A stretch of 64,000 bases of DNA from the IMG/VR virus record IMGVR_UViG_3300025446_000005; one strand, given 5' to 3'. This stretch comes from an uncultured virus (IMG/VR IMGVR_UViG_3300025446_000005). Lineage: Duplodnaviria; Heunggongvirae; Uroviricota; Caudoviricetes. Made by a program: the position numbers and the translations under genes. This document shows positions 2,698 through 20,863 of this stretch, one piece after another; position 1 is the stretch's first letter; each line of letters starts with the position of its first letter. Under the pieces are notes generated by a model. It saw only the letters and a program-made list of their open reading frames with translations. It made no database searches and was not told the DNA's origin.

Positions 2698-5600
2698 CTA
2701 CGACGTGCCCAATCCCTGCAAGTTCGACCTGCCGAACAGGCCCCTGCTGCCCGAGGAGGCGGAAGGGGGGCCCGACGTTTTTTTGCCTGCCTGTAAGGGC
2801 TCCACGTCCCTGTCGTACACGTTGTAGTCCGTCCCGCCCTTCCGCCACGTCACGGTCAGCAGCCTTTCGGCACCGCCGTGGAACTCCCTGCTCTGCTCCG
2901 GCGTCAGCCTGCGGACGGCCTTGACGACGCCCCTCATGCCGTCAGCCTTCCGGACCACCTCGCTCCCCATGTCCCCCGGCCTGGCCAGCGACGGGTCCGC
3001 CAAATAAATGCGGGACGGGTCGAACACCGCCACCTGGTCGCCATCCAGGAGGCGTCGGATGCCCATCCCCTTGTACCACACGGCGTCGAACCTGGACTTG
3101 AGGCTGTCGGTCAGCATCTTGGTCGCCGCCACCCGGTCGACCCTGGCGACCTCCGGGCTGTACCCGTTCTTGATCCACCACTTCATCATGGTGTTGGGGG
3201 AGCCGAAGTTGATGGTCTCCAGCCTCGGGACGTCGAGGTAGTAGGACCTGAGCCCCCTGGTGGTGCCGCCGTTGAACGCCTTGGCGATGGCCTTGCTGGT
3301 CGTGAAGTAGATGCCATACCCAAGGTGGTGGACCGGGGCTGGGAGCCCGAGGGCATAGTCCGTCTTCCCCTCGTACCCATGCTGGATTTCCGCCGAGTTG
3401 GCCTCCCCCTCGAAGACCTTGAACCCCTCCCTGTCGATGCCCGCGGCGGCCTGCGGGGTGGTCCCGTGCCATACCGGCCCGAACATGCCGCGGTCGACGG
3501 CATCCTGCGGGGAGACGGTGCGGTCGGCGGGGAAGGCGAGCTTGGTTGCCGACCCCGTGATCCCCCCCATCGGGCTCCTGACCCATTCGGCGGCGCGCTC
3601 CACAGTGGCGTCCCTTATCGTCCCCCTGCCGTACAGCGTCACCTCTACGATCGCGCCGGCCGGCAGCCTGGCCAGCGCCAGCTCCACCGTCTTGCGGGCC
3701 TTGGCGTACGCCTCCATCTCCCACTTGTCGTTCTTCCCCCAGACCTTCCTGACCGCCACGTGGCCCTTCTCCAGGGCCGCCCCCATCGTCGCCTCCTGGT
3801 CCAGGTAGCCGAGCCCCTCGTCCTTCCAGACCGGCCCCACAAGGCCGAAGTCCACCGCCGAGTCCCCGTGCCCAGCCTCCGCCATCTGGCGGTCGTCGTA
3901 CTCGTGCCAGCGCCCCCCGGCCTCCAGCCAGCCGCTCCTCTGGAACGGGGCAAGCTTGGGACGCCTTGCCGCGGCCGTCTTCTCGGGCCCCCACACGCTC
4001 TCGTAGGCGTCCTTGAGCGGCACCGGGAGGCTGCGGCGGGAGGGGCTCTCCATCTCCCTCGGGTAGTTCCGCTCCATGAACCTGACGAGGTCGTCCCCGA
4101 CGAGCGTGATGTCCGCCGCAACGTCCTCCTCGGAGAAGTAGTCCCCCGGCTCCAGGCCAAAGGGGAGGTCGTAGTCGACGTTCCTCTCCCCGCGCAGGCT
4201 CTGGACCTCCGGCCCGGCGTGCCTGTCCTCCCCGAGGTACCGCTGTATGGGCCCGTCCAGGTCCGCCACCACGATGGTGAGCTGCCCGTGCCTCCTGATG
4301 TCGTCCGGGGTGGGGTCGTGCCCCACCGCCCTGCGAACCTTCGACCTGATCCAGCGGGGCATCTCGTCGAAGTACGCCGCCCCCCCTCGGTCCTTGATTT
4401 CCTGTATGGCATCCTCGCTATCCGTCGCCCCCTGCAGGCACTCCTCCACCCACTTGCCCATCTGGGCCCGTACACCCTGTTCGACGATGGAGGCGTCCTC
4501 GTCGGCGGTCCCGGCATGGAACAGGACCATCTGGCTGCCGGGGTCCACGGACCTGATGATGCGCTCCGCCTCCTGCCAGGTGCCGGAGGCTAGCTTGAGG
4601 AAGGGCCCGCCATGCTGTGTCGCCGTTTTCCCTTCTTCCTCGTCGAGGGCCTCAAGGCATTCCCTCGATGCCAACAGGATGTCGTCCCCGTCCGGGTAGT
4701 TGTCGGGGATGATCCAGCCGGGCATGCTGGAGTTCCGCATCGCGTCGACGATGTCCTCGGAACCGTATGCCTCCATGTTGACGCCAATCATCTCGCAGAA
4801 CTTTTCCATTTCCTCCTTGCCGTCGATGCGGGGGAGTCTGATGGGACAGATGACCTTGTACCGGAGGACCTTGCCGCTTTCCTCCCCGCCGTGCCAGTCC
4901 TGGAAGTGCTCGGCGACGGACTCCGACGTGCTGAACCAAGCGGGCATCTCGATGCCGGACGGGTCGAACCTCTGCGAGGTGCCATGGTAGAGGACGGTGC
5001 CCCTGGGGAGGACCTGAGTCTTGCGCCAGCGCCGCCACCATTCGCCCGCCGCCGCCTTGCGCAGGGCGGACCCGTCGAACACGTAGACCGACTCGGGCTG
5101 GCCCCTCCCCTCGTCCAGCCACACGGCCTTGCATCCCCTTGCCTTGGCGTCCTGCACGGCGACGTCTATGGCGTCGGGGTCCCCGGCATACGGCGGCGCG
5201 GCGGGGTGGAATATGCCGTCCTTCCTCATCCTCGCCCGCCTGAGCTCCTCCGTCCTGCCGGTCTGCGTGAACTGGGCCGCCCACGCCTCGTCCGGGGACC
5301 AGTACCTCCCGCCCTTCTTGGACCCCCCACCCTCCCCCCTGAAAAGCAGGATGGTGCCGTCGTCCGCCGCCTTGCCGGGCTGGTGGGCCTGCTCCACCAC
5401 GAATTCCCCCCCGTACCTCTCCTTGAACTGGGCAAAGAAGTCGGGCGGTATTTCCCCGTAGTGGATCACCAGGACGGTGGGATTCTTCCAGTCGTCCCCC
5501 TTGTACTTCCTCCCGTCCCTCACCTCCACGACCGCCAGGATGCGGTTGGAGCCGGAGTAGCCTATGGGCTCCGTGATCCTGGCGGTATCGCGGTTGTATG

Positions 5601-8600
5601 CCTCGCCGGGGCGCAGCGGGCGGGCGAACTGGCGAAGCGCCCTGGTGATTTTCTCCACGGCGTCCCTGAAGGCCGCCTCGCCCTCCTCCGGCGAGGGGAT
5701 GAGCGCCTGGACGTCCGGTATGCTGTCGTACTCCACGTAGGGGAACGCCTTGTGGTAGGCGTGGCGCAGGTCGTAGGGCTTGGACCTCTTGGCCTCGTGG
5801 GCGGCGATGCGCAGGAGGGCGGCCTCCCATGCCTCCGGCAACAGGGCGCGCAGGCGCTCCTCCATGCCGGGGTGCAGGCTGCCCTTGTCCTCGCCCGGCA
5901 TCTTCCACTTGAATGCCAGGCCCCGGACGGCGTCCTCGACGTACTTCCGCCTCTCGGCGTCGGCGAACTCCTTCCACGACCCGTCCTTGCCCAGGAAGGT
6001 GGGGAGGGAATAGTAGGTGTTGTCGCTCAGGCGTCCCAGCGGATGGCTGAGGTAGAAGACCACGTCGTCCTCGTCCAGGTACATGGTGTTGGGCTGGAGC
6101 TCCATGCAGACGACGACCTCCCGCCCCTCCTCGTTGTGGTCCTTGGGGGCGCTGGCGGCGGTCATGAGGTTGCGGGCGACGTACGTCCCCCCGTAGCTCA
6201 CCCGGCTGACGCTCACGGCGCTGGCGGCGGCATCCTCCCCCCAGTTCCTCTCCTTCGGGTCGGGGATCAGCCCCTGCTTGAGGATGCTGCGCAAATTCTT
6301 GATGCTGCTGCCGTGGTACCAGACGGACTTGGGGGCGGCGAGCTTGGGCGGGATTGGCTTTTGGGTCGAGATTGCCTCGGCGACGGCCTTCGTATCGTAG
6401 AATTCCACCCCCGTTACCGCCGTCGCGGGAATCGTGCCCTCCAGGCTGCTCACGTCGGGGTTATGCCTGTCAAGGAATTGCACGCCCTTTGTCGGTCTGA
6501 ACAGGACTAGTGCAACCCGCTTAGAGTTCTCCTGCCGGGCCTTCCGCAGGCCCCATCCGAGGGCCACCCTCCTGTCGGTGCTGATATAAATATGCCCCCC
6601 GCCTGCACCGCCCGTATAATCTGCCTTCAGGGCCGGAGGAACCAATCCATCTTTCTCGATATCCTTTGCGGCAGCGGGCGTCGTCCCGTGATACCAGATG
6701 GACTCGGGAGCGGCGGTCTTGGAGGCGGTCATCCTCCTATCGGACGGGTCGAACCCCTTGCTGTCGACTGCCTTGATCTGATCGGGGCTGAAAACAACGT
6801 ACTCGACGTTGGACTTCCCCCATTGGTCTTTGACCCGGTTAATGATGCCGTCGTATCCCGCGCCCCTGATCCTCTCCGGATGGCGGGAGATGATCTGCTG
6901 CAGGCTCTTGCTTCCATCGGCGGAGCGGAGGTCCTTATAGATTCCCTCGACGCCCCATCCCAGCCTTTCCAATTCCTCCCTGGGACCAAGAAGGCCGGAA
7001 TCAAGGAGCGCCTGGGCATTCGCCTTCGTTTTGACCGTCAGGTCCAGCGGGTTCTCGATGCGCAGGTACACCTCGAACACATGCGGGTCGTAGCCGTCGA
7101 TGATGCGCTTCTGCCCGAGCATCGGGTCGTATTCCACGCGATAGGTGAACCGCTGGGCAAAGTTCTGGTCCGGAGTGAAGAAGAACCCCACCTTTGCGTC
7201 GGCGGCCTCGGTGTTCCTCCCCTGCATTCCGGGGTTGAACGCCTCGAAGGGCACCCGCTTGCGGTGTATGCCGCCCATGACCTCCTCGGGGATGACCCCG
7301 GGGTTCTGCTTGTCGAACCTCTCCATGGTATCGACCCATCCATCGAGGTGCTTGTCCACGTCCTCGTCGCCCGGATAGGCCTTGCCCATATGGTCGAAGG
7401 CTAGGCGCACCGCCTTCTTGAGGTCGTCCACCCACTCGGGGCGGTAGTTCTTCCCCCTGGGGCTACCGTGGTACATGACCATGGGGGTGCCGTCCGGGTT
7501 GACCACCTTGGACTTGCCGAACCAGGCCCTGAACTGGGGCGAGTCGGTTACGGCGACGGTGGTCTTGGATGCGGTCACGTGCTCGTACTTGGGCCTCTGC
7601 CACCTCGACGACCCCCTCAGCTTCCAGCCGGTGACGCGGACCGGGGCGTCGTGCCTGAGCGTCACCTCCTTCTCGTCGGAATGGCGGAGGTTCGCCCAGA
7701 CGGTGCTGGCCCAGTCGACGTCCTTGAGGGCCACCTCCCCCCGGAAGACGTAGGTCTTCAGGCCCCTGCTGTACTCCGTCCAGTCCTCCTTCTCCCATCC
7801 CCCCTCCTCGGCGAGGACGGAGTCGGCGTCGTAGGGGACGGCATGGCCTTCGTCCCACGTCCAGTAGATGCCGAACCCCCGCGTGTAGGGATAGCGGTCC
7901 GGCATCTTAACCGCACGGTAGACGACGAGGGGATCGGGAAGCCCGTTGCAGAACTCCCTGAACTCCTGGTACCTGCCGAGGTAGGCATCGCCGTACCAGC
8001 GCTCGTACTCCTCGGCAGCGGGAAGCTGGGAGGGCATCCCGACCCCCGCCATCAGGGAGTTGTACGACTCCTTCCCAGCGGCGGCCTTCCCGGTCGGCAG
8101 CCCCTGGTACGAGTCCACTGGGACGTACGCCAATATGGCCTTGTCCCCCCTGATCTTGCCTGCCGCCACGCGGTGGTTGCCGTCCCGTATTCTCCCGTCG
8201 CCATCCATCACTATGGGCGGAATGGGGGTTTCCATCCTTGCATACTTCTCCGCAAGGGATGGATCGTAGTCGTCCCCCGCTTCGAGCTTTTGCAGGGACA
8301 CCTCCTTGAGGACGTAGTCCCCCCCTGCATCCAGGCCGACCAACTGCTCGGCGTAGGTCCTGTCCTTCCACTCCGGGTGCTGGGACATGACGTAGTCGAC
8401 GACCGCCTGACCGCCGATCCTGTCCCCGGCCCGGGCGGCGACCCTGGTGCTCCCGCCCAGGTTTTCCAGCCATTCTATGGCAACCTCGGGGCCGTCGAAC
8501 TCCCGGTACATCTTGAGGTAGCCCCCCCATTCCAGGGTTATGGGGACGCCTGCGGGAGGGGGATGATCCCTCAGCAAGGAGATGACGTCCTGCTTCTGGC

Positions 8601-11600: not shown

Positions 11601-14600
11601 TGGGAACGCCCACATAGGCGCGAATGGTCTCGTCGCCCCTGTCCCAGGCCGCCGTCGCCCGGTGCATGCCGTCCACGATGCGCCCCCCTATCACTACAAT
11701 CGGGGGAAACTCGGCGTCCATGTCTTGGTATTCCCGGATAGCCTCCAGGTCCTTAGAGCCTGTAGAGGTCGTGGAACAGTCCGGTATGTACAGGTCCTCA
11801 AGGGGGATGTCCCTGAGGACGTATCGGCTGGCGCTTGATTCGACCAGCTTCAAGAGGTAGTCCAGCCCTCCCGCCTTGCCCTCTACCCCTCCTCTATGCA
11901 ACTTTGCGATGTAGGAGGTTATCCATCCGGCATCGGCCTCCGGTGGATAGAAGGAATCGCCCGCCTGCCTGGGCATGGTACTTCTCTGCGGCGTGACGGT
12001 CGCGAACTTGTCGTCTTTTGCTTTGCACAGGATAGACGAGGTCTTCATAGGCTTTAAGACGATGACATCTTCTTCCTTTACCTCGATGGGATAGCCGTAT
12101 TCCCAGCTATACGCCTCCGCTTGGTATAGACCATCGACTCTAAACCTTCTTGAGGGGATGCGAATGACAACGGGCTTTCCTCCTTTGGATTTAATGAAGT
12201 TCCTGGCGTACCAAGCGGCAACTGGTTCGGTTGAAAACCACGTTCCGGCCCGCAGGCCCACCTTGAGGATATCCCCCGTGTATGTGCTGGTGGTGCCGTG
12301 GTACAGGAATTCCGGCAATGCCTTGGCCGCTTGCTTGACCAGGGTGCTTCTCTGCGGCGTGACGGTCGCGAACTTCCCGCCGTCCGCCTCGCCCAGGACG
12401 GTGCTGATGCCGTCGTTCATGTATTCGTCGTATATCCTGAAGTGGCTGTCCCACCATTCGTCCTCGGGCTCGTCGGCGGCGTTCCTGCACCCGATGGTAT
12501 GTGTTTCCACCCACCATCCGTCGACGACCTTGGAAGTGCCGCACGCCTCCGCGGATGCGCCCGCCAGCATCCTCCCGGCCTCCTCCAGGACGTGCGGAGG
12601 AGGAGGCGAGCTGGCGACCTTGCGGTGCTGGCGGACCTCGATGGCGGGGTCGTAGCCGTCATGGTCGACGAGGCTCCGCCTGACCTCCTCGGCGTCCGCC
12701 GCCACGGCGGGAAGGCTGTCTATCTTCTGCCCGTCGAGGTAGACGTCCCACCAGGGAGCGGCGTCCTCCCGCAGGATCATGGCGTGCTCCATCATCCTCT
12801 TGGCCGCAACCTCCTCGGGATCGGTCATGTACCTCCGGAAGGACTCCTCGTCCACGAGCTTCGCCAAGTCGGTCTTGACGACCTGCCTCTTTCTGACCGC
12901 GTGGAGGATGTGGGCCCCCTCCTCCAGGATGGTCCTGATCATGTCCTCGGGGCCGAGCCTGGGATTGACGAACATCGCGGGCTCCCCGCGGAACCTGCCC
13001 GCCCCCCCGAAGAACTTCACGTTGGGGTTCTCCACGACCTTGCCGCCCTGTATCGGGCGATCCAGGGCCACGACGGGGACGTCCAGCACCCCCTCGTACA
13101 GCGCCCTGACCTTCCTGCCGACCAGGAGGTCCCCGAGGGTGCCCGCGATCTCCCCGAGGGGGCTCACGGCTATCCTGCGGACGAACCCGTAGTCAAACTT
13201 GGATGGGAAGGCCGTCCGGCCGGGCTGCCCCATGTACCTGTCCCCCGCTTCCTTCGGAACGGAGGCGGCCTTGCTCGTTTCCACCTCGGCATGGTCGGGG
13301 CCCGCCGCTGGCCCCACCGGGGCTTCCTGCACCTCGACCTTCTTCTTGTACAGGGAACCCCTGTCGGTGCCCTCCGCCTTGCAGATCGGGCAATGGCGGC
13401 TGAGGCCGCCAGCGTCCTTGAGTTTTCGCTCGAACCCCCTGGTGACCCCCTCCCATATCCTCGCCACGGTGAAGCTGATGCCGCGCTCCTTGGCGACCTC
13501 CATCAGCCTCACCCAGGACGTGCCCTCGTAGTGCCTCTTTATCCTCGCCATCGGGTCGATGGCGAACCCGCAATAGTGCCTGGTGGCCGCCTGCGACCCG
13601 TGGGGGATGCCGCCGCCAAGGAAGTGGAGCAGGTAGACCGCCCCTAGCTTGCCTTCGTCGGCCGGTGCCCTGGCATACTTGTCCTTCTTCATCTCGCGGA
13701 GCAGCTTGTCAACGTATACCTGGGTGTCCACGGGCTTGCCCACGTTCGTGACCTGGGACGGGTCGAACACGACGAACTCCATGTCCGTAAGGGCGGCTAT
13801 GTCGGTATAGATAAGCCCGTCATGGCCCGCCCTCAGCGCCATGCGCGCCACGGAGCGATCCACCCTGGCCCATTCCTCCTGCGTCTGGGGCGGGCCCGTG
13901 TCGTCGGAGAGGGCCTTGTCAAGGTCCTCCATACCGGGAAGGCCGGTCAGCTTTTTGGTGGCGTCCCATTGGTCCTCCGCCACCAGCGGGTTCGCCATGC
14001 GCAGCGTCGCCACGACGTAGTGCGTCCCGTATTCGGGAGCGGGATCCTCCGAGAAGAACGCCCCTCCCTCCCCCCACTTTATCCTTCCATCGGCCCCCGT
14101 GACGTGGTATCCCTTGAAGATGGCGGGCCTTCCGGTGCGGAACCGTCCCTTGTCGTACTTGAAGGCCGTCATCGTCCTCCATGCCTTCGGGGCCGTCCTC
14201 CATCCATAGCCTCCCTTCTTCCATGCCACGATGAGGGGATGGACGCCCTCCTTCAGGCGAATCTCCCGTTCCTCCTCCCCCGTGGAAGGGGCCATGTTGG
14301 CCTCGAACGTGCCCTCCCAGTCGATGTCGTCCCTGCCCACCTGGGCCTTCAGCAGGATTTTTTCCGTCCCCAGGCCGAAGCTTCCCCAATGGGCCTCGGC
14401 GGCGGCCTCGTCCCACGACCAGAAGATTCCGATCTTCTTGGGATTGACGGCCTTCCTTCCCCCGACCAGGGACAGCATCCGGTAGACGGTCAGGGGGAAC
14501 GTCCATCTCCCGTGCTGGCGCAGCAGCTCGTCGTAGCGGCCCTTGAGGTGCTCCTCGGCGTTCCCGTAGATCCACTTCGCCTGCTCCTCCTCGGGAAGGG

Positions 14601-17600
14601 CGTCGAACTCCCTCGTCTCGTCGACGTCGGACGGCTCCCACTGGTCCCACGAGTCCACGTCCCGCACCATCCCCTCGATGCCGCCGTGCTGGCGCTTCCA
14701 TTCCTCCCATGACGGCATCCCCTCCATGATCCCCGCCGTCTTCGGGTAGAGTGCGCCCTCGTCGATGTAGTATCCCCCGTCGTCCCCTTCCCTTTCCTCC
14801 GGGTCGGTGAGCGGCCTGTCGGCCTCCCCAACGTACCCCTCCGGCGTCATGGCCCACATCGCGTCCTCGGTCAGCCTCGTCCACTGTCTGCCGTCCCAGA
14901 CTTGCAGCCGGGCGGCGGGGATGCTCCTCTCGGTGAAGAAGGCGTCGGCGACGGCGTCGCCTGTCCCCACTTCGTCGGGCTGGACCTTCAGGCGCTTTGC
15001 CTCCTTGGTGCGGAGGATCACGGGGACGAGGCCATCCTCGACCGGGCTGTCGGAATTGTGGTATGCCCACTGGACCGCCCGCTGGTACCAGAAGCCCACC
15101 CCGCGCCATTCGGTCAAGAAGCTCCTTCCCTTCGTGTGCCAGCCATAGAGCCCCCCGATGCTCGCCGGGTGGCCGGTTTCAAGCCCGAGCCAGATGATGT
15201 CCTCCAGCCGGTTGAAGTAGGTCACGTGGTAGAGCCAGTCGCCGGTGGCCGCCGTCTTTGCCTGTTCCTCCAGCTCCTCCAGGGAAAGCCCCGTCCTGTT
15301 CCCGTCGATGCACTCGGGCTGGGTCCCGTACCCGCCGATGGCCTCCCCCTCGCCAAGGTCCGGGAACTCGTTCTCGCGGTGCGGCGTCTGCTTGTGGGAG
15401 GCCGTGACCATCTTGTTCATCGTCCTGAAGTCGTTGTCCTTCGGCTCCTCGATGCCAGTCAGCCGGATCCTGGCCCCGGGCACCAGGCGTATCTCGTCCT
15501 CGTCGGGGTCCTTGGCGTTGGCATGCAGGGTGCCCTCCCAGTCCACGTCGTCCTCGCTCAGCACCTCGGCCCGCAGGGTGACGATCCCCCCTTCCTCCCC
15601 CCCGACGCTCGGCGTCCATATCGACGACGGGCCCCAGTAGGACTGGGCGCTGTCTACGTTGTCGCTCCAGTATATCCCCACGTTTTCCAGGTTGACTTTC
15701 TTCCCGGCAGGCACCTCCAGTTGCCGGTAGACCGTCAGGGGGAACTTTATGGAGTTGAGGTACTCCACTTGGTCCGGAAGGGCCCATTCCCGGATTTTTA
15801 AGTCAGCGCCTGCACTCAAGCCAAGGCCCTCCAGGTATTTCCTGGGCGAGCGGGGCATCTCGACCCTCCGCCTGGCGGACGCCGTGACGGGCGCTTTCGG
15901 GGCGAGGAGCGGGCTCCCCGGCTTGGGCTCCTTGCCTGCGGTCGGCGCGGGCACGAGCCACCTGCGGTACTGCTGGAAGTTGGCGACCGCCCAGTCCACC
16001 GCGTCCTGGAGGCGTTCCGCCTCGAACACGGGCCTCCCGTTGCCCCCCTCCGGCAGGCACCATTTCCCGTATATCTCGCAGATGGAGACGATGTCCCTCG
16101 CGTCCCTGCCCCAGAAGATGACCTGGTCCTCCTCGTCCCCGTAATGGTGAATCCTGATTCCCGATGCCCTGAAAAGCACGGCATGCTTGCCGTATTTCCC
16201 CTCGATGCGCCCCGCCTCGTCCGCTGGGACGGCGAAGTTGTATCCCCCGGTCTTGGCCTTGTCGGTGAAGTAGGTGATGAGCCCGAGGCGGGCCAGGTCC
16301 CACATCCCCCTCGTGAACCCATGAAGGGATATTTCGCCGGGCTCGTCGGTCTTGTGGACGAGCCACTGGTTCCTGACGATGCCCTCGTATTCCATGTGCA
16401 TGAAGGACGGGGCGTCCATGGGATCATCATCCACGGCCCTCATTCCCTCGTCGCTCCTCAGGAACTGCTCGCACATCGCAGGCGGCAGGCCGGAGAACAT
16501 GTCGTTGTCGATGAGGTCCTCCAGGTCCTTGGGGGCCTTCCAGCCCTCGGGCAGCTCCTGCCCGGATAGCCAGTCGAAGAAGCGATGCGGGAACTGGCGG
16601 GCCAGCTCCTCGCCCTTTTCGGCGTCCGTCATCGTCAGGTAGCCTTTCAGCCACGCGAGGTCCTGGCGCACGAACGCCTTCTTTAGGCTCCCCACCTTTG
16701 CTCCGTCCGGATTGCACTGCGGGCAGGCGCAGCACGGGCACTTAGGGTCGCCGCAGAAGGCGTGGTACTTCTCGTGTCCCGGCTGTCCTGGCCGGACGAC
16801 GTTCACGTCCGGCTTCCCGAACTGGTCGTGCGTCCCGTCGATAACGGTTCCGTCCTTGAGGACGTTCCATACGTGGTCGAGATGCCCGAAGTTCGGCCTC
16901 CGCCCGTGTGGGGCGGGAATGCCATCAGGAAGGTAGAAACCGCCTTCGATGCCCCAGCCGAATTTCTTGGACGCCGCCTCCGACACGAAGCCGCATTGCC
17001 CTTCGCTGGCCGCCGCGGAGGCGCTCTCGTCCATGCGTATGCTCCCCCGAATCCTGCGGAGGGCGTCCAGCACTTCGGGCGTCGGCATCGTTTCCTTCCC
17101 GCTGGCCGTAATGCTAAGGTCATCCGGATCGAATGTCCCGGTGTTCCTGTCGGCGGACTTGACTTGGCTGGGGCTGAAGATAACATAAACGTCGCTTTGA
17201 GTCGCCCCGTCATAGACGTCCCTGGCGATGATGCCGTCCCGCCCGTTCTTCTTTGCCCAGTCGAACTCCGCCTTGCGGGGGACTATGCCGTCGAGCACGA
17301 GCGGGTTTTCGATCTTGAGGTACACCGCCATGACATGGGTGTCGGTGCGAAGCTTCCTGTTGTACATCCGGGCTTGGCTCTTGGCCTCTTCCTCGGCCTT
17401 CTCGATGGTGGGGTAGGGGCCGACCGAGAAGATCGGCTCCTCCCGGAGGGTAAAGACCGCCGCATAGAACTCTCCGTCCTTGCCGTATCCCTGAATGCTT
17501 GCCTCGTCCGCCTTCTTCTTGGGGCCCGAGTCAGAGAAGAACCTGGCATTGTCCTTGCTGGACGTGAACCAGATTCCCTTTTCGACACCCGCCGCACCGG

Positions 17601-20226
17601 CCCACGAAGTGCCTGCCATGCCCAGGTCGAACGACGACACCCACGGGGACTTGCTGCCATGGTAGACGACCAGCGGCCTTCCCGCTGCATCCACCACCCT
17701 GGAGTTTCCGAACCACGCGTCCAAGGCTGGCGTGCGGATCGGCCTTGCCGCCGCCTTTTTGATTCCCTCCGTACGGTAGGGCGGCACCCTGGAGATTCCC
17801 TTCTTCACCCCCTGCCACCGTGCGGTCGGGGAGATGCGCTTCTTGAGGTAGGGCAGGAGGTCCTTGTACCGGTAGCGCTCCACGGCGCTTATGTGCTGGG
17901 GGCCGACCGGCCCGCGCTTGAGGTACACGTCGATTTCGTCGTCGCCCAATCCTACCCTCGGCTGGAGGTCCATCCCCGCTCCCCTGGGGTCGTCTATGCG
18001 GACGAGGAACACGTCCGGCATCCTCCCGGGCTCCTTCTCGGGATCGATGCCCTCCTTGAGGCCCTTGCCCAGGGCATCGCCGAGGGCATAGTATATGGCC
18101 AGGCCCTTGTCCGGGGTGGCGTACGCCGTCCCCCAGAACTTGCCGGGCACGAGGCCCTTCTCCTTTATGGAGTAGGCGGCATCTTCCGACGTCCCGTGCC
18201 AGGCCGTGCCCACATTGCCCGCCCTTCCCGCCGCTTGTTTGTTCTCGGGCGCGAACACGGGCTTGAAGACGTTGAGCTCGATGCTTATCGGGACGGTGCC
18301 CTGCCCGACGAACCTCTTGTAGTTGCTCGGGCTGAACAGGACTATGGAGTCGAACCCCCGTTTCTCCGCCTCCTGCTTCATCCTGGCGTCCAGGAAGAAC
18401 CTTGCGGCCACGCCAGCATCGTCCGGGATTCCCCCGAGGCCGAGATCCCGGAGGATGCTCTCCTCGTCCCCCACGAGGGGATTGGCCACGTGGACGTGGA
18501 GCGGGGCGTCTAACGGCCTGCCCCAGAACTCCGCCTCCCTGAAGGTGGAGGCGAGGAACTGCCCCCTCTTGCTATATGCCTTGGGGTCCTCGGGCGGGAC
18601 ATGCCACCAGTCCTTGGAGTTGATCCTGCGCAGGAGGGCGTCCATGGCTCCCCCGCCCGACGAGCTGGCCGTGACGGAGGTCAGCCATCCTTCCCGCACG
18701 TCGGGCTGCCCCCACATCTCGTCGAACTTGGCCTCCAGCTCCGGCCCCCTTGCGATTGCGTACCCGCCGTAGGGGGAGATGCCCGCCTTGCACAGGAACC
18801 TGCGGTCGGTCGTTTCGACGAGCTTGTACTGGCCCGGGTCCTGCAGCTTGGGGGTCGCCAGCAGCTCTTTCTGCTTCTGGGAGAGGTGGGCGGAATATTG
18901 CCACAGCCGGTTGTTGTTCCCGTAGGGATACCTGTGGAGGAGGACGTAGAACGGCTTCTCGTCGTATTCCACCACCATCGCTTGGTCGGATTTCTCCGTT
19001 ACGAAGTCCTTGCCGTACTTGGCGTTCCAGCGGTCGGCGACTTCCTTCCAGGACCTCCCGTGCCCGCCCATGACGCCACTCAGCATCTTCACGGTCTGGG
19101 GGGTCATGCCCTCGTTGAGCTTTCCCTGCCAGTAGACGAGCATCTCCTCGTGGTGGGCAAGCTCATGGGCGAGGATGCGCCGAAGGGTTTCATCGTCCCC
19201 GCAAATAGATTTCTGGAGGGTGATGACGGTGTTGGGCTTTCCAATCGTCCACCTGCAATCCCCCAGCCAGCGGGACTTTATGTTGTTCACGACCTTGAGC
19301 TCGGGAACGGGGAGGTCCCCCCGGACGTCGGGCATCAGGGACGCGAGGACGTTCCTGACCTGCCCGTAGTCCATGGCCTTGGCTACTATGCCTTTTTGAT
19401 TGAGGGACTTGCGCAGCTTGCCGCCCTCGCCCGTGGTGCCGCTGCTGGTTATCTTTTCGCCCGGGAACTCCTGCCCAACCTTCTCGTACATGGCGGTGGC
19501 CACGCCCTTGCGCCGCCAGGCGGGATCGACGAAGACGTACTGCACCCACACCTCGTCCCTGTATTCGGAGAAGTGCAGGTAACCCACCTTGACGCCCCGC
19601 CTCGTCTCCGTATGGCCGCCCTTGCCATCAGGGACGGACTTCCACGCCCCGGCGTCCTCCCCGGCCCATGCCGTGACCCTGCCGAAAAGCTCGTCCCTGT
19701 GGGCGTCCACGATTTCGAGCTGGCAGGTGAATGCGGGCGTCCCAGTCGCCTTTTTCGGGCGGGCGGGTTCCTGGGGGACGAGCCACTTGACCATCAGGGG
19801 GAGGGTGGGCTTCTCGCCCTCCTCGGCCCATTCTCCGCCTGCCATGCCCACGTGCTCGAAGCCGTGGCGTTCGTACCATTTGGCCAGGTTCATGCCCTTG
19901 AGCGCCCTAACGTTCTTCTCGTATATGCCGACCAGGAGGACGACGGCGTCGCATCCCATGCGCCTTGCCTGCCGGGTAAACCTTTCCAGCGTCTTGTTTC
20001 CCCAGCCCTCGCCGCGAGGGGAGGCGAACATGATGTCGATGACGCCTACCTTCTTGCCGGACAGCATCCGCACAAAGCCCTCGGGGTCGGAAAGGTGCTC
20101 GTTGTCGGCCCATGCCTCCAGGTCCGGGTCGTTTTCCAGGATTCCGCCGATTAGGTCGTAATGAGGCGTGTTATAACTGATTTCCTGCCATGCTGTCCTG
20201 AGGAGCGGGTTTTGTGCGATGCGCAT
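2698..20226 (-). CDS. giant multi-module (polyvalent) protein: ~20 ADP-ribosyltransferase-like domains, 2 GNAT, SprT-like zincin, papain/transglutaminase-like, GIY-YIG, 2 ParB/Srx-like and unknown modules
   Basis: Uninterrupted 5842-codon ORF with protein-like composition. Motifs include RGEGWG/WYERHGF and VDPAWRRKGVAT (GNAT), HELAH...HG (SprT), WFGNSRVVD..GRPLVVYHG...VIFSPSQVKS (ART-PolyVal-like), five YR...GxxW[ST]...ExE units, VYLLHF...HYCG (GIY-YIG), and PPIV...DGxHR twice (ParB/Srx). Confidence 0.9.
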   Translation of the reverse strand: MRIAQNPLLRTAWQEISYNTPHYDLIGGILENDPDLEAWADNEHLSDPEGFVRMLSGKKVGVIDIMFASPRGEGWGNKTLERFTRQARRMGCDAVVLLVGIYEKNVRALKGMNLAKWYERHGFEHVGMAGGEWAEEGEKPTLPLMVKWLVPQEPARPKKATGTPAFTCQLEIVDAHRDELFGRVTAWAGEDAGAWKSVPDGKGGHTETRRGVKVGYLHFSEYRDEVWVQYVFVDPAWRRKGVATAMYEKVGQEFPGEKITSSGTTGEGGKLRKSLNQKGIVAKAMDYGQVRNVLASLMPDVRGDLPVPELKVVNNIKSRWLGDCRWTIGKPNTVITLQKSICGDDETLRRILAHELAHHEEMLVYWQGKLNEGMTPQTVKMLSGVMGGHGRSWKEVADRWNAKYGKDFVTEKSDQAMVVEYDEKPFYVLLHRYPYGNNNRLWQYSAHLSQKQKELLATPKLQDPGQYKLVETTDRRFLCKAGISPYGGYAIARGPELEAKFDEMWGQPDVREGWLTSVTASSSGGGAMDALLRRINSKDWWHVPPEDPKAYSKRGQFLASTFREAEFWGRPLDAPLHVHVANPLVGDEESILRDLGLGGIPDDAGVAARFFLDARMKQEAEKRGFDSIVLFSPSNYKRFVGQGTVPISIELNVFKPVFAPENKQAAGRAGNVGTAWHGTSEDAAYSIKEKGLVPGKFWGTAYATPDKGLAIYYALGDALGKGLKEGIDPEKEPGRMPDVFLVRIDDPRGAGMDLQPRVGLGDDEIDVYLKRGPVGPQHISAVERYRYKDLLPYLKKRISPTARWQGVKKGISRVPPYRTEGIKKAAARPIRTPALDAWFGNSRVVDAAGRPLVVYHGSKSPWVSSFDLGMAGTSWAGAAGVEKGIWFTSSKDNARFFSDSGPKKKADEASIQGYGKDGEFYAAVFTLREEPIFSVGPYPTIEKAEEEAKSQARMYNRKLRTDTHVMAVYLKIENPLVLDGIVPRKAEFDWAKKNGRDGIIARDVYDGATQSDVYVIFSPSQVKSADRNTGTFDPDDLSITASGKETMPTPEVLDALRRIRGSIRMDESASAAASEGQCGFVSEAASKKFGWGIEGGFYLPDGIPAPHGRRPNFGHLDHVWNVLKDGTVIDGTHDQFGKPDVNVVRPGQPGHEKYHAFCGDPKCPCCACPQCNPDGAKVGSLKKAFVRQDLAWLKGYLTMTDAEKGEELARQFPHRFFDWLSGQELPEGWKAPKDLEDLIDNDMFSGLPPAMCEQFLRSDEGMRAVDDDPMDAPSFMHMEYEGIVRNQWLVHKTDEPGEISLHGFTRGMWDLARLGLITYFTDKAKTGGYNFAVPADEAGRIEGKYGKHAVLFRASGIRIHHYGDEEDQVIFWGRDARDIVSICEIYGKWCLPEGGNGRPVFEAERLQDAVDWAVANFQQYRRWLVPAPTAGKEPKPGSPLLAPKAPVTASARRRVEMPRSPRKYLEGLGLSAGADLKIREWALPDQVEYLNSIKFPLTVYRQLEVPAGKKVNLENVGIYWSDNVDSAQSYWGPSSIWTPSVGGEEGGIVTLRAEVLSEDDVDWEGTLHANAKDPDEDEIRLVPGARIRLTGIEEPKDNDFRTMNKMVTASHKQTPHRENEFPDLGEGEAIGGYGTQPECIDGNRTGLSLEELEEQAKTAATGDWLYHVTYFNRLEDIIWLGLETGHPASIGGLYGWHTKGRSFLTEWRGVGFWYQRAVQWAYHNSDSPVEDGLVPVILRTKEAKRLKVQPDEVGTGDAVADAFFTERSIPAARLQVWDGRQWTRLTEDAMWAMTPEGYVGEADRPLTDPEEREGDDGGYYIDEGALYPKTAGIMEGMPSWEEWKRQHGGIEGMVRDVDSWDQWEPSDVDETREFDALPEEEQAKWIYGNAEEHLKGRYDELLRQHGRWTFPLTVYRMLSLVGGRKAVNPKKIGIFWSWDEAAAEAHWGSFGLGTEKILLKAQVGRDDIDWEGTFEANMAPSTGEEEREIRLKEGVHPLIVAWKKGGYGWRTAPKAWRTMTAFKYDKGRFRTGRPAIFKGYHVTGADGRIKWGEGGAFFSEDPAPEYGTHYVVATLRMANPLVAEDQWDATKKLTGLPGMEDLDKALSDDTGPPQTQEEWARVDRSVARMALRAGHDGLIYTDIAALTDMEFVVFDPSQVTNVGKPVDTQVYVDKLLREMKKDKYARAPADEGKLGAVYLLHFLGGGIPHGSQAATRHYCGFAIDPMARIKRHYEGTSWVRLMEVAKERGISFTVARIWEGVTRGFERKLKDAGGLSRHCPICKAEGTDRGSLYKKKVEVQEAPVGPAAGPDHAEVETSKAASVPKEAGDRYMGQPGRTAFPSKFDYGFVRRIAVSPLGEIAGTLGDLLVGRKVRALYEGVLDVPVVALDRPIQGGKVVENPNVKFFGGAGRFRGEPAMFVNPRLGPEDMIRTILEEGAHILHAVRKRQVVKTDLAKLVDEESFRRYMTDPEEVAAKRMMEHAMILREDAAPWWDVYLDGQKIDSLPAVAADAEEVRRSLVDHDGYDPAIEVRQHRKVASSPPPPHVLEEAGRMLAGASAEACGTSKVVDGWWVETHTIGCRNAADEPEDEWWDSHFRIYDEYMNDGISTVLGEADGGKFATVTPQRSTLVKQAAKALPEFLYHGTTSTYTGDILKVGLRAGTWFSTEPVAAWYARNFIKSKGGKPVVIRIPSRRFRVDGLYQAEAYSWEYGYPIEVKEEDVIVLKPMKTSSILCKAKDDKFATVTPQRSTMPRQAGDSFYPPEADAGWITSYIAKLHRGGVEGKAGGLDYLLKLVESSASRYVLRDIPLEDLYIPDCSTTSTGSKDLEAIREYQDMDAEFPPIVVIGGRIVDGMHRATAAWDRGDETIRAYVGVPSTKVTQQRDRTASSVAKVGGLQEISNGWIKLDGSFVYSTAHNEDAKRWGYENLEEAVDEGLVRVIGTSRHLSFEATDAAGPRHRILEALDSINHDAEVAIELIQDRSLGHSVYKRFDSPWDAGKWLSRWKRAFGKKEAIGDKGWSYDDPLTDRSADFFELVENPHSERKKEAAAKTAAWEGAVDFSSDPRWHDVFYGMPTPRRIKELGQFLRSDANRFVTLYHGTDAGHPVMEEGLLPTSAGRAKSIQSSPGFVYLSVFPGHAKTFGELAYGPTTPIAVYAVTVTARRLLPDPDQLRNKRMYGNAEVGDTLAESLAIGHGARVRGKVDPMQLSVVRGPKKASGPTGFPSVAEVLEWGHVEPHELVDWGKVEDAVSRIPVSQRNQTRKEDEDQTALRILTEQWEAARERLGALRFPLAAYRALSFDSPDWGKEVNKGGFGVYWSLSEDSSYIGEDLVGKYVFVFRGVIESPDDVDWVPTAYLNTVIPEEEEVRLKEGARVRVDGWKARGGGRWTRLSGGMAVTASTPKEAAGDLMSLFEGVRVPSQLPDVDVMREYLSPEALEEYLETRKFFLKLPNPFVVYRALKLDSESVLPRRQDFGVCWTWDFDKARPYGPAAQRQGVRHIFQGEVALEDVDWGYTAIVTSSEEKEIRLRRGARVRLTRWFNPRFEGDGWKAPPYQYVTASASKAAFTDAAMYADADLRDEVAREILDEYKKVVGDGIDYAMPGKRPTKKHLFQKNYRQRWRVVPAARLMKIWKDYAKAGIVRDQAGMDEIADIVTENILKIEVNTILCRHTSWSPEEFAAEVLDHEVPEGYFDLLPSFFDDEEGSWRLSDFATGPLTTLALDLYDAKTAEAKLQVVDKILNIVHQRSDLSGWLVQGGRVTLRKLFEYIGEAKGGENVVWVRDPKGKVVFNPDFDPSKTAADPSIPAGDEEFWKAGGLVVGGVLHPFTKELDTHPLLAKSLGLEAWAAEGAIRVTTDWLSRCGCSAREKIYMEVLNLGQKQDVISLLRDHPPPAGVPITLEWGGYLKMYREFDGPEVAIEWLENLGGSTRVAARAGDRIGGQAVVDYVMSQHPEWKDRTYAEQLVGLDAGGDYVLKEVSLQKLEAGDDYDPSLAEKYARMETPIPPIVMDGDGRIRDGNHRVAAGKIRGDKAILAYVPVDSYQGLPTGKAAAGKESYNSLMAGVGMPSQLPAAEEYERWYGDAYLGRYQEFREFCNGLPDPLVVYRAVKMPDRYPYTRGFGIYWTWDEGHAVPYDADSVLAEEGGWEKEDWTEYSRGLKTYVFRGEVALKDVDWASTVWANLRHSDEKEVTLRHDAPVRVTGWKLRGSSRWQRPKYEHVTASKTTVAVTDSPQFRAWFGKSKVVNPDGTPMVMYHGSPRGKNYRPEWVDDLKKAVRLAFDHMGKAYPGDEDVDKHLDGWVDTMERFDKQNPGVIPEEVMGGIHRKRVPFEAFNPGMQGRNTEAADAKVGFFFTPDQNFAQRFTYRVEYDPMLGQKRIIDGYDPHVFEVYLRIENPLDLTVKTKANAQALLDSGLLGPREELERLGWGVEGIYKDLRSADGSKSLQQIISRHPERIRGAGYDGIINRVKDQWGKSNVEYVVFSPDQIKAVDSKGFDPSDRRMTASKTAAPESIWYHGTTPAAAKDIEKDGLVPPALKADYTGGAGGGHIYISTDRRVALGWGLRKARQENSKRVALVLFRPTKGVQFLDRHNPDVSSLEGTIPATAVTGVEFYDTKAVAEAISTQKPIPPKLAAPKSVWYHGSSIKNLRSILKQGLIPDPKERNWGEDAAASAVSVSRVSYGGTYVARNLMTAASAPKDHNEEGREVVVCMELQPNTMYLDEDDVVFYLSHPLGRLSDNTYYSLPTFLGKDGSWKEFADAERRKYVEDAVRGLAFKWKMPGEDKGSLHPGMEERLRALLPEAWEAALLRIAAHEAKRSKPYDLRHAYHKAFPYVEYDSIPDVQALIPSPEEGEAAFRDAVEKITRALRQFARPLRPGEAYNRDTARITEPIGYSGSNRILAVVEVRDGRKYKGDDWKNPTVLVIHYGEIPPDFFAQFKERYGGEFVVEQAHQPGKAADDGTILLFRGEGGGSKKGGRYWSPDEAWAAQFTQTGRTEELRRARMRKDGIFHPAAPPYAGDPDAIDVAVQDAKARGCKAVWLDEGRGQPESVYVFDGSALRKAAAGEWWRRWRKTQVLPRGTVLYHGTSQRFDPSGIEMPAWFSTSESVAEHFQDWHGGEESGKVLRYKVICPIRLPRIDGKEEMEKFCEMIGVNMEAYGSEDIVDAMRNSSMPGWIIPDNYPDGDDILLASRECLEALDEEEGKTATQHGGPFLKLASGTWQEAERIIRSVDPGSQMVLFHAGTADEDASIVEQGVRAQMGKWVEECLQGATDSEDAIQEIKDRGGAAYFDEMPRWIRSKVRRAVGHDPTPDDIRRHGQLTIVVADLDGPIQRYLGEDRHAGPEVQSLRGERNVDYDLPFGLEPGDYFSEEDVAADITLVGDDLVRFMERNYPREMESPSRRSLPVPLKDAYESVWGPEKTAAARRPKLAPFQRSGWLEAGGRWHEYDDRQMAEAGHGDSAVDFGLVGPVWKDEGLGYLDQEATMGAALEKGHVAVRKVWGKNDKWEMEAYAKARKTVELALARLPAGAIVEVTLYGRGTIRDATVERAAEWVRSPMGGITGSATKLAFPADRTVSPQDAVDRGMFGPVWHGTTPQAAAGIDREGFKVFEGEANSAEIQHGYEGKTDYALGLPAPVHHLGYGIYFTTSKAIAKAFNGGTTRGLRSYYLDVPRLETINFGSPNTMMKWWIKNGYSPEVARVDRVAATKMLTDSLKSRFDAVWYKGMGIRRLLDGDQVAVFDPSRIYLADPSLARPGDMGSEVVRKADGMRGVVKAVRRLTPEQSREFHGGAERLLTVTWRKGGTDYNVYDRDVEPLQAGKKTSGPPSASSGSRGLFGRSNLQGLGTS
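6311..6714. repeat. imperfect 29-bp direct repeat pair (6311-6339 and 6686-6714, 25/29 identical)
   Basis: ccgtggtaccagacggacttgggggcggc versus ccgtgataccagatggactcgggagcggc; encode AAPKSVWYHG and AAPESIWYHG. Confidence 0.8.
11981..12375. repeat. perfect 29-bp direct repeat pair (11981-12009 and 12347-12375)
   Basis: cttctctgcggcgtgacggtcgcgaactt occurs twice, encoding KFATVTPQRS both times. Confidence 0.9.
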
Positions 20227-20335: not shown

Positions 20336-20863
20336 TTAGGGCTTGGCGGGCTTGCAGCAGTGCTTGCGGAGGCTTCCCTTCTTGGCGTAGAAGGACGCCC
20401 GGTGGCCGTTGGCGTACTCCTCCCTGCGCTCCGTCAAGAGGGGCCTCGAAACCGGCCAGTACGCCATGCGGCAGCGGCGTCTTTTCAGCGGCTTCCCGTC
20501 CCTCGACGTTTCGATGGCGAGTATCCCCATCACCAGCTCCTGCGACTCCTGGGCGGAGGCCAGGTCGGCGTCTCCGAAGCGGGTGTCGGAGAAGTTCGGG
20601 TGCGTGTGGATGGTGCCGAGGAAGCTCATCCCCGCCTCCCTGGCGTCGTCCTCGTGCTCGTCGAGCTCCGAGTCCTCGTACTCTATGGAGCGCCGGTGCC
20701 CCTTGTGCTCCATGCGCACGAACGCCACCACGTAGAGGGTGTCGCCATGTATCCTTCCCCAGAGCGCCTCGACGTATTCGTTGGGATAGTGGCCCAGGGC
20801 GCGGCGGCGGAACTTCCTCTCCTCCTTCTTGTCCACCACGACCTTGAAAAAGGGAGCGAGCAT
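20336..20863 (-). CDS. JAB/MPN (JAMM) domain metallopeptidase
   Basis: YPNEYVEALWG (catalytic Glu region) and LGTIHTHPNFSDTRFGDADL (HxH...D); GGAGG RBS and TATAAT upstream. Confidence 0.8.
   Translation of the reverse strand: MLAPFFKVVVDKKEERKFRRRALGHYPNEYVEALWGRIHGDTLYVVAFVRMEHKGHRRSIEYEDSELDEHEDDAREAGMSFLGTIHTHPNFSDTRFGDADLASAQESQELVMGILAIETSRDGKPLKRRRCRMAYWPVSRPLLTERREEYANGHRASFYAKKGSLRKHCCKPAKP

Follow-up and report, generated by a model that had tools for sequence, protein, structure and literature searches.

A recurrent alanine-centred signal separates the modules of a giant polyvalent protein in an uncultured jumbo phage and may mark head-protease cleavage sites

Background

Among the described systems closest to the one reported here are the prohead proteases: gp21 of phage T4 reportedly acts on substrates that bear capsid-targeting leaders, and gp175 of phage phiKZ is said to be the prohead protease that processes head and ejection proteins. 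Phage and herpesvirus head proteases share a fold, and the herpesvirus assemblins follow the general rule (V/L/I)-x-A|S. We report on a stretch of 64,000 nucleotides (the whole of the DNA analysed, hereafter the window) from an uncultured virus of the class Caudoviricetes (IMG/VR record IMGVR_UViG_3300025446_000005), and specifically on its gene for a giant polyvalent protein, P0001. In this protein a short signal, [K/R/V/I/M]-x-A-[A/S] and mostly K-T-A-A or V-T-A-S, separates the modules at shuffling breakpoints, and comparison with relatives indicates that head and cargo proteins of the lineage bear this signal too, whereas its tail and replication proteins do not. We propose, at a probability that we put at roughly 0.55, that the giant protein is a cargo polyprotein packaged in the head and processed by the head protease.

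Polyvalent proteins combine 2 to 15 domains in one polypeptide (Iyer et al. 2017, PMC5512222; this and the other papers cited were available as partial text, to which our statements about them refer). P0001 resembles them in its many effector domains (ART-PolyVal, GNAT, zincin) and its phage setting, here with an InPase-domain gene next door, and packaging, injection and processing were predicted for them too (PMC5512222). It differs in having about 25-30 modules in 5842 amino acids (aa); moreover, the available parts of that paper name no junction motif, the word 'linker' having 0 occurrences in them, and they favour embedded zincins, whereas the evidence presented here points to a head maturation protease. 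The DarB and DdrB proteins of phage P1 are likewise large multidomain antirestriction proteins packaged in the head, and DdrB is processed before packaging, but they are much smaller and no recurrent junction motif is noted for them in the same parts of the text (PMC5512222). The available text of a review on jumbo phages mentions polyvalent proteins in passing only (PMC7824862).

In Salmonella phage SPN3US, the protease gp245 recognises A-X-E and cuts after it, in its own chain as well as in the capsid protein, the portal and the abundant ejection proteins, and nearly all cuts remove N-terminal propeptides (PMC10052503), whereas the sites in P0001 lie between some 25 enzyme modules. The prohead-protease systems are otherwise like the one proposed here in having one short motif in capsid protein, portal, protease and abundant internal or ejection proteins, as well as multi-site substrates and short N-terminal propeptides. 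An earlier sequence-only reading of the window had taken T4 and phiKZ as its precedent; the analogy holds in principle, but the motifs of T4, phiKZ and SPN3US end in Glu, while here Ala is followed by Ser or Ala, at cuts that are predicted.

Results

A recurrent signal at the module boundaries of P0001

The gene is the following:

2698..20226 (-), giant polyvalent-protein gene (P0001), an uninterrupted single open reading frame (ORF) of 5842 aa, about 640 kDa

Its locus has a codon-position G+C pattern like that of the other genes of this 64% G+C sequence, and a search for proteins of similar length returned a cluster, P0002, identical to P0001. The sequence-only reading had listed 34 junction strings along the protein, and all of them were found, in the order stated, in this one ORF. 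Compared with 300 composition-preserving shuffles of P0001, [VIM]TAS occurred 8 times (0.2 expected, shuffle maximum 2), K[TKQAELV]A[AS] 18 times (2.1 expected, maximum 9) and [KRVIM]TA[AS] 15 times (0.9 expected, maximum 4), while the remaining 66 proteins called in the record, 23,980 aa in all, gave 1 against 1.0, 12 against 9.0 and 8 against 4.3 expected, respectively. The motif is peculiar to P0001 in its record and is no general trait of the proteome. In its strict form it has 28 matches in P0001, representing about 23 distinct junctions, so that the ~30 free enzymes foreseen earlier were too many. Bare [KR]-x-A occurs 79 times, and 11 of the 34 listed strings, being bare K/R-x-A, are therefore singly indistinguishable from chance. 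The variation in codons between copies was confirmed, the Ser of [VIM]TAS being AGC in three and TCC in five; since both are used, the constraint acts on the protein.

Module boundaries were set without the motif, as the ends of BLAST high-scoring segment pairs (HSPs) of P0001 against 32 other giant proteins (33 were returned, including the identical P0002), in which the modules stand in shuffled order. At E<=1e-8 we obtained 69 HSPs with 138 ends, 45% of which lay within 15 aa of one of 33 broad-motif sites (16% at random; 0 of 2000 placements reached this value), and 55% of the broad-motif sites were near an HSP end (29% at random; reached by 4 of 2000 placements). In 26 boundary segments, together 1240 aa or 21% of P0001, the broad motif was found 14 times, compared with 2.08 +/- 1.45 and a maximum of 7 in 1000 shuffles within the segments. 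These segments are hardly richer in Ala (0.099 versus 0.090 in the rest of P0001) or Lys (0.069 versus 0.055), and linker composition is therefore no explanation of the motif. The motif is thus enriched at HSP ends, and near expectation in the other 66 proteins, as the sequence-only reading had anticipated for a true boundary signal; its wording that the motif marks nearly every boundary is supported in part, within the limits set by the loose strings and at least one motif-free boundary (see Discussion).

Half of the 28 strict sites (14) lay at an HSP end, where 25% of all positions lie, eight were spanned by an HSP (49% of positions) and six were without HSP (23%). Seven of the eight spanned sites are in stretches collinear with a relative, and the residues aligned to five of them, 1657, 4499, 4503, 4628 and 5057, are motif-like (KEAAG, FTAS, QTAAS, PKTAAP and KQAAG). 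The eighth, MTAA (4688), falls inside the PARP-like core conserved in five relatives and is probably no junction. An AlphaFold2 model of residues 3040-4239 from the single sequence (mean predicted local distance difference test score, pLDDT, 33.1) gave no usable domain boundaries.

The junctions are listed below with the residue number in P0001 in parentheses; HSP ends are those within 15 aa, P0003 to P0006 are related giant proteins, and G002 is a 317-kb relative.

18664..18675 (-), VTAS (518), after the zincin module; 5 HSP ends
18229..18240 (-), KQAA (663); strict match outside HSP coverage
17746..17760 (-), KKAAA (823-827), before ART-PolyVal module 1; 12 HSP ends
17101..17112 (-), ITAS (1039), after ART-PolyVal module 1; 13 HSP ends
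15877..15888 (-), VTAS (1447); at an HSP end
15397..15408 (-), VTAS (1607), after a DVDW-type module; spanned by an HSP, with MITAS in P0004 and RVMAY and TVVAY in P0003 and P0005, i.e. kept in one of three
15247..15258 (-), KTAA (1657); relatives aligned with KEAAG, KTAGK and KSAAT
13261..13272 (-), KAAS (2319); 4 HSP ends; in G002 the aligned position is where the first polyvalent ORF ends
12610..12621 (-), KVAS (2536); strict match outside HSP coverage
12325..12336 (-), KQAA (2631); at an HSP end
11563..11574 (-), RTAS (2885); strict match with no HSP at E<=1e-8, looser HSPs ending at 2878-2896
11068..11094 (-), double junction KEAA-AKTAA (3045-3053); strict matches outside HSP coverage
10576..10587 (-), KKAS (3214); spanned by one collinear HSP, P0003 aligned with KTGAG
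10012..10041 (-), double junction VTAS-TPKEAA (3396-3405); at an HSP end, P0003 aligned with RQVRAAAT
9550..9561 (-), VTAS (3556), then SKAA; 4 HSP ends
8830..8841 (-), KTAA (3796); at an HSP end
8077..8088 (-), KAAA (4047); 2 HSP ends
7567..7578 (-), VTAS (4217), before ART-PolyVal module 2; at an HSP end, and an ORF start of G002 maps here
6709..6732 (-), double junction MTAS-KTAA (4499-4506), after ART-PolyVal module 2; P0004 aligned with FTAS and QTAAS
6334..6345 (-), KLAA (4628), before the PARP-like module; 4 HSP ends, orthologous KTAA, KVAA, KTAA and KTGA
5047..5058 (-), KAAA (5057); P0006 aligned with KQAAG
4585..4596 (-), KLAS (5211); 3 HSP ends
3970..3981 (-), KTAA (5416); strict match outside HSP coverage, HSPs ending at 5396-5398
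3535..3546 (-), weak junction TKLA (5561-5564), before the last module; a separate ORF of G002 starts M-TNVS-KTA-F at the aligned position

Related giant proteins and the split locus of G002

KTAA, KTAS or VTAA is among the top over-represented 4-mers in 7 of the 32 giant proteins (P0003, P0004, P0005, P0006, P0010, P0013 and P0014) and in none of the other 25. Specifically, KTAA occurs nine times in P0010 (0.13 expected) and six times in P0006 (0.08 expected), and P0005 has six KTAA and four KTAS. At orthologous junctions the motif is retained where flanks and indels vary, e.g. the junction before the PARP-like module reads PKLAAP, DKTAAQ, EKVAAP, VKTAAP and VKTGAP across orthologues.

In G002 the polyvalent modules are distributed over six large ORFs (155250-186479; 1566 to 3027 aa), several of which have ends that map to junctions of P0001: the first ORF stops at 2318 (SKAAS), another starts at 822/4216, and the start M-TNVS-KTA-F of a further one aligns to junction 5561 (TKLA-F). 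This coincidence of gene ends with junctions implies that the chain can be broken there into separate proteins. Moreover, the separate module ORFs retain a short leader and K-T-A at their N-terminus, and since K-T-A is kept behind a leader even in stand-alone genes it is unlike a mere spacer.

The whole polyvalent locus of G002 (L033-L035) amounts to about 10,800 aa in ten ORFs. Some of the polyvalent ORFs are separated by an HNH-like ORF (175868-176539) or a GIY-YIG-like ORF (159947-160813), possibly homing endonucleases by which the gene was split.

Other giant polyvalent proteins have recurrent strings of their own at module ends: DIRFR seven times in P0015, PSILxS eight times in P0008, FSNR four times in P0030, IRFQ(Q/E)G four times and VRFQQG once in P0017, and [VI]LFQ eight times and PLFQ once in P0019. 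The tails of ART-PolyVal modules often read ...NRGTFDPxxP, followed by the recurrent string.

The signal in head and cargo proteins of relatives

Over its first 20 kb the window is 99% identical to virus record G001, a 114-kb fragment with an estimated completeness of 36%, and on these grounds it belongs to a jumbo phage with a genome of about 300 kb or larger. Among named phages its nearest relative is Tunturiibacter phage Tunturi_5 (PP885688.1), a myovirus of 308,711 bp with a host in the Acidobacteriota. Its portal has 56% identity to that of the window over 70% of the query, and the region from polymerase to portal is syntenic between the two; Bacillus phage G is distant (32%). The portals of the relatives used here have 55-72% identity to the window portal, with G002 at 72%. 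Since the head genes of the window phage are absent from G001, we inferred them from these relatives. They are present in Tunturi_5 (annotated), G003, G004, G005 and G006. G002 was considered as the source and set aside, its record being without a head module, and G003 supplied the genes; its protease matches the head maturation protease family phrog_18299 (1.4e-14) and its capsid protein phrog_2522 (7.6e-41).

The proteases of G003, G004, G005, G006 and Tunturi_5 all have K-x-A-[AS] in a variable N-terminal tail, just before the conserved core (GKTAAT, WKTAS, LKIAA, HKQAS/IKIAA and QKTAA/KIAA), and again in a variable C-terminal tail (KKVAS in Tunturi_5, and AKAAS, AKAAS, TKIAS and TKAAS), where K272, A274 and S275 are invariant in an alignment of four sequences. 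The N-terminus of the capsid protein has QKLAAS in 5 of 5, within a surrounding region that is conserved as a whole, and the acidic scaffold-like proteins of the relatives have 6-11 broad matches each. The look at capsid and scaffold proteins that the sequence-only reading had suggested found the motif in both in these relatives, and the sharing of the motif with capsid leader, scaffold and protease that would mark a prohead substrate was seen in relatives only (Tunturi_5 and G003-G006).

The window itself encodes a portal with four sites that are of interest here:

46520..49006 (-), portal protein of 828 aa, phrog_16240
48911-48922 (-), RKIA (residue 29), conserved site
48734-48745 (-), KTAA (88), conserved site
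48086-48097 (-), KKAS (304), conserved site
48002-48013 (-), VTAA (332), before a Pro/Gly-rich insert

An alignment of nine portals has K-[TVI]-[AG]-[AG]-L before the conserved core and [IV]-[TLK]-[AV]-A before the Pro/Gly-rich insert, and KTAA (88) and VTAA (332), both of which had been pointed out earlier, are present in the window and conserved in the nine aligned portals. A further protein claimed to carry the motif, at 25560-28394, did not hold up: the actual ORF is 25560-27794 (744 aa) and has a single [KR]-x-A-[AS] match. The insert, about residues 335-430 of the portal (window about 47700-48010), is rich in Pro, Gly and Ala, of low complexity and variable in length, and is found in all nine relatives.

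Head and cargo proteins of Tunturi_5, the closest cultured relative, have the same motif, although its polyvalent proteins are shorter (gp321, 1362 aa; gp350, annotated as DarB-like, 1080 aa). We counted K-x-A-[AS] in the 52 larger annotated proteins of two stretches of its genome, adding the group sums from the values per protein. Nine head or cargo proteins hold 49 matches against about 10 expected: gp328 ('ejection protein') 10, gp350 9, gp348 8, gp332 6, gp345 5, the polyvalent gp321 4, the portal 3, and the capsid protein and protease 2 each. The other 43 proteins hold 10 against about 10.6 expected, among them the tail fibres gp337, gp341 and gp342 with 0 and the sheath and the DNA polymerase with 1 each. 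Similarly, among the 310 ORFs of the complete genome G004 the 15 of lowest p-value account for the excess, with 40 matches where 6.8 are expected, and the other 295 hold 44 against 43.2; in its top 25, six ORFs have BLAST matches to gp350, P0001/gp321, gp328, gp345, the protease or gp348, and the coordinates of a seventh identify it as the portal. For G002 the polyvalent ORFs give 19 matches against 1.3 and 18 against 2.9 expected, and the other clearly enriched proteins are the portal and the homologues of gp350/gp328 and gp348 only.

The gp350/gp328 homologue of G002, P0037 (1604 aa; L028, 42857-50044), is rich in Lys, Glu and Ala and has 9 broad matches; its N-terminus is like Tunturi gp350 and its C-terminus like gp328. 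Its neighbour of 583 aa, the gp348 homologue, has 6 broad matches.

Finally, no match to PF00716, PF04586 or PF03420 (S21, S78 and S77) was found at E<=1 in G001, G002, G004 or G005, where the S21 search was blank in control genomes too; of the three families, only PF00716 was run on G006, and the searches did not extend to G003. A profile of the protease against PDB sequences gave 0 matches at E<=10.

Domains of P0001

P0001 fits the definition of polyvalent proteins by Iyer et al. 2017 (PMC5512222): it has several unrelated effector domains, ART-PolyVal among them, in one chain, and it is encoded by a phage, as seen from the portal, DNA polymerase, UvsX-like recombinase and clamp loader of the window, its match to G001 and its kinship with Tunturi_5. 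A zincin, frequent in such proteins and not obligatory, is suggested by an SprT-like module. The Pfam search was performed on 23 overlapping chunks of 500 aa and, together with inspection of the sequence, gave the following features:

20191..20226 (-), N-terminal leader M-RIAQ-NPLL-RTA, residues 1-12, ending in the first R-T-A
19468..19596 (-), GNAT acetyltransferase core, residues 211-253, PF13508, 39.9 bits (cut-off 27)
18694..19404 (-), SprT-like zincin module, residues 275-511, PF10263 at 318-403, 20.9 bits (below the cut-off of 25.6)
17104..17691 (-), ART-PolyVal module 1, about residues 846-1041, PF18760, 70.2-73.8 bits (cut-off 31.2)
6757..7248 (-), ART-PolyVal module 2, about residues 4327-4490, PF18760, 55.9-58.4 bits (cut-off 31.2)
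6154..6330 (-), PARP-like catalytic core, residues 4633-4691, PF00644, 27.7 bits (cut-off 26.7)

A short N-terminal leader of the form NPLL[QR]-[KRP]-[TF]-A is common to P0001, P0003, P0004 and P0005, and G002 has it in its first polyvalent ORF. The zincin module has HELAHH, an intact HExxH, at residues 354-359 (19150-19167; read from the sequence), and by BLAST it is common to P0003, P0004, P0005, P0007, P0009 and P0011, and it is also present in G002. When P0001 is cut at the listed junctions, 23 of 33 modules are without a Pfam family at E<=0.1.

A DVDW-type module (~130-160 aa, with FPLTVYR-like and D[VI]DW motifs and no assigned function) occurs in five paralogous copies, at about residues 1490-1607, 1895-2021, 3270-3398, 3430-3558 and 4085-4219. 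Every copy has a [VM]TA tail behind it, and relatives, too, contain the module in repeats. A self-BLAST of P0001 gave nothing usable, and the paralogy was read from the sequence and the DVDW positions.

The phage and neighbouring genes

The window encodes, besides the portal, a PolA-type polymerase, a clamp loader, a UvsX-like recombinase and a RuvC-like resolvase. A search of a phage collection for near-identical DNA gave no match. Two genes on the same strand precede the giant gene:

20336..20863 (-), Prok-JAB metallopeptidase-like gene, 175 aa, PF14464, 38.1 bits, with an HTHP motif; directly upstream of the giant gene
20933..21814 (-), InPase-domain gene, 293 aa, PF18823, 113 bits; upstream of the giant gene and in the same place in G002

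The Prok-JAB gene has no homologue in G002, and InPase is itself a domain of polyvalent proteins. Beside the portal, 42440-46462 (-) encodes a 1340-aa protein with a PKD-like domain and no motif excess, the counterpart of which in Tunturi_5 is annotated as a minor tail protein. The phage genes also include a tRNA nucleotidyltransferase, a clamp loader, a ribonucleotide reductase and a 1180-aa fusion of glycosyltransferase and methyltransferase (window 61-1320 (+) and 33751-34860 (-); L003). The G+C content is 64% in the window, 58% in Tunturi_5, 54% in G002 and 43% in G004.

Discussion

Since the junction signal is the same as that in the capsid protein, scaffold and head protease of relatives, P0001 is probably packaged and cut into enzymes. 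In the mechanism that we propose, the precursor would enter the prohead, for which its conserved N-terminal leader of the NPLLxKTA type may serve, and the head maturation protease of the phrog_18299 type would cut at or beside the Ala, most likely at Ala|Ser or Ala|Ala. The product would be some 20-25 separate enzymes (acetyltransferases, ADP-ribosyltransferases, a zincin and unassigned folds), small enough to pass through the tail and enter the host together with the DNA. A cut at Ala|Ser is suggested by the sites of herpesvirus assemblins, e.g. YLQA-T and VQA-S for pseudorabies virus (PrV) (PMC4498786). The two are alike in Ala followed by Ser, with an aliphatic residue two positions before, and assemblin cuts its own precursor and the scaffold; they differ in that Lys is the commonest residue two positions before Ala here, and in that the searches found no sequence similarity to Peptidase_S21, in control genomes either. 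The earlier proposal that a phage protease cuts a polyprotein at Ala junctions gains comparative evidence from relatives, and the cutting itself stays a prediction.

Several observations weigh against processing by the head protease. The boundary between the GNAT and zincin modules, at about residue 275-286, has no strict motif, and none of the genes for a head maturation protease, capsid protein or scaffold is found in G001 (114 kb). The p-values of single ORFs in G004 are modest (best 2e-4 among 310 ORFs), Thr occupies the second motif position in 91 of 240 polyvalent sites versus 11 of 106 head-protein sites, and AlphaFold2 of the head protease with a 4-sequence alignment (mean pLDDT 32.2) left the fold unassigned. 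The ITAS after ART-PolyVal aligns to SILAS or RILDQ in distant polyvalent proteins of other lineages, so that part of the [VIM]TAS class may be an old feature of module tails. Moreover, five [VIM]TA-type sites follow the paralogous DVDW modules and two follow ART-PolyVal, and because paralogous modules precede them these copies are not all independent. Throughout the clade, cutting at the junctions is predicted from comparison, and in the available parts of the Tunturi phage paper (PMC11924767) 'protease', 'capsid protein', 'mass spectrometry' and 'polyvalent' have zero occurrences.

The kinship of ITAS with the SILAS-type tails of unrelated lineages, the motif copies behind paralogous modules and the predicted nature of the cuts also suit an explanation that we regard as unlikely but the best of the alternatives, namely that the motif is a conserved, uncut element (a linker or capping strand, or a docking or packaging signal) and that P0001 acts as one 640-kDa chain or is packaged whole in the manner of the N4 virion RNA polymerase; polyvalent proteins like the latter are packaged unprocessed (PMC5512222). 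Speaking against it, the motif borders at least four unrelated module types, it is retained where flanks and indels vary and behind the short leader of stand-alone genes in G002, and a capping role is implausible for protease tails that look disordered and for the acidic scaffold-like protein.

Somewhat less probable still is that the embedded SprT-like zincin (275-511) cuts the junctions, before packaging or after injection, a processing role that Iyer et al. 2017 propose for the metallopeptidase domains of polyvalent proteins (PMC5512222). Its HExxH is intact, the module is common to six related giant proteins and G002, and a protease borne by a module could explain why distant polyvalent proteins, too, have recurrent junction motifs. 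However, its Pfam score lies under the curated cut-off, and this explanation leaves the motif in the tails of the head protease, the N-terminus of the capsid protein, the scaffold and the portal unaccounted for. The motif-rich P0006 and P0010 are without a zincin HSP and P0007 and P0011 show the reverse, which is weak evidence because those proteins may be part-loci only.

The adjacent Prok-JAB metallopeptidase as a dedicated processing enzyme is very improbable: it is encoded directly upstream on the same strand and has a family match and the HTHP motif, but it has no homologue in G002, where the InPase gene, the zincin and the motif persist, and no link of JAB enzymes to the motif is at hand. 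That chance, Ala/Lys composition or paralogy without function lies behind the signal is hardly credible, since against the frequency of bare [KR]-x-A, the 11 loose strings and the [VIM]TA tails of the five DVDW and two ART-PolyVal paralogues stand observed counts that no whole-protein or within-segment shuffle reached, boundaries barely richer in Ala and Lys, alternating AGC and TCC codons for Ser, and a motif that persists in relatives of 43-54% G+C.

Three further candidates were set aside. Internal translation starts at the junctions were rejected, since 11 of 28 sites have Shine-Dalgarno-like cores nearby and the null mean is 10.6, as were relic start codons (the M or V of [VIM]TAS), 5 of 6 Val codons being GTC and no start codon. 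A recombination signal at the DNA level is unlikely, the Ser codon families switching and the motif being kept at 43-54% G+C.

Returning to the cargo polyprotein cut by the head protease, the module-end strings of other lineages invite a wider and more tentative proposal, a clade-specific junction code in which each lineage places its own head-protease site between its cargo modules, here K/V-x-A-S/A. Those strings could each be the site of the lineage's own protease, or could equally be an ancient element of the module tail or the target of a protease borne by a module. Polyvalent proteins and the idea of their processing (PMC5512222), and the motif-coded processing of ejection proteins by a head protease (PMC10052503), are already published; a literature search, in which subscription journals were not covered, gave no Ala-Ser/Ala rule for a phage head protease and no junction motif for polyvalent proteins.

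If processing by the head protease is true, the host would receive some two dozen separate enzymes from a single gene upon infection, and from the same separating rule every other packaged protein of the lineage could be recognised in sequence data. An Ala-Ser/Ala specificity, near that of the herpesvirus assemblins, would then join the Glu-type rules of the T4-like and phiKZ-like phages. Should the junction code also be true, modules would evolve as cassettes flanked by cut sites, and the injected arsenal and the protease specificity of uncultured phages would be readable from sequence alone.

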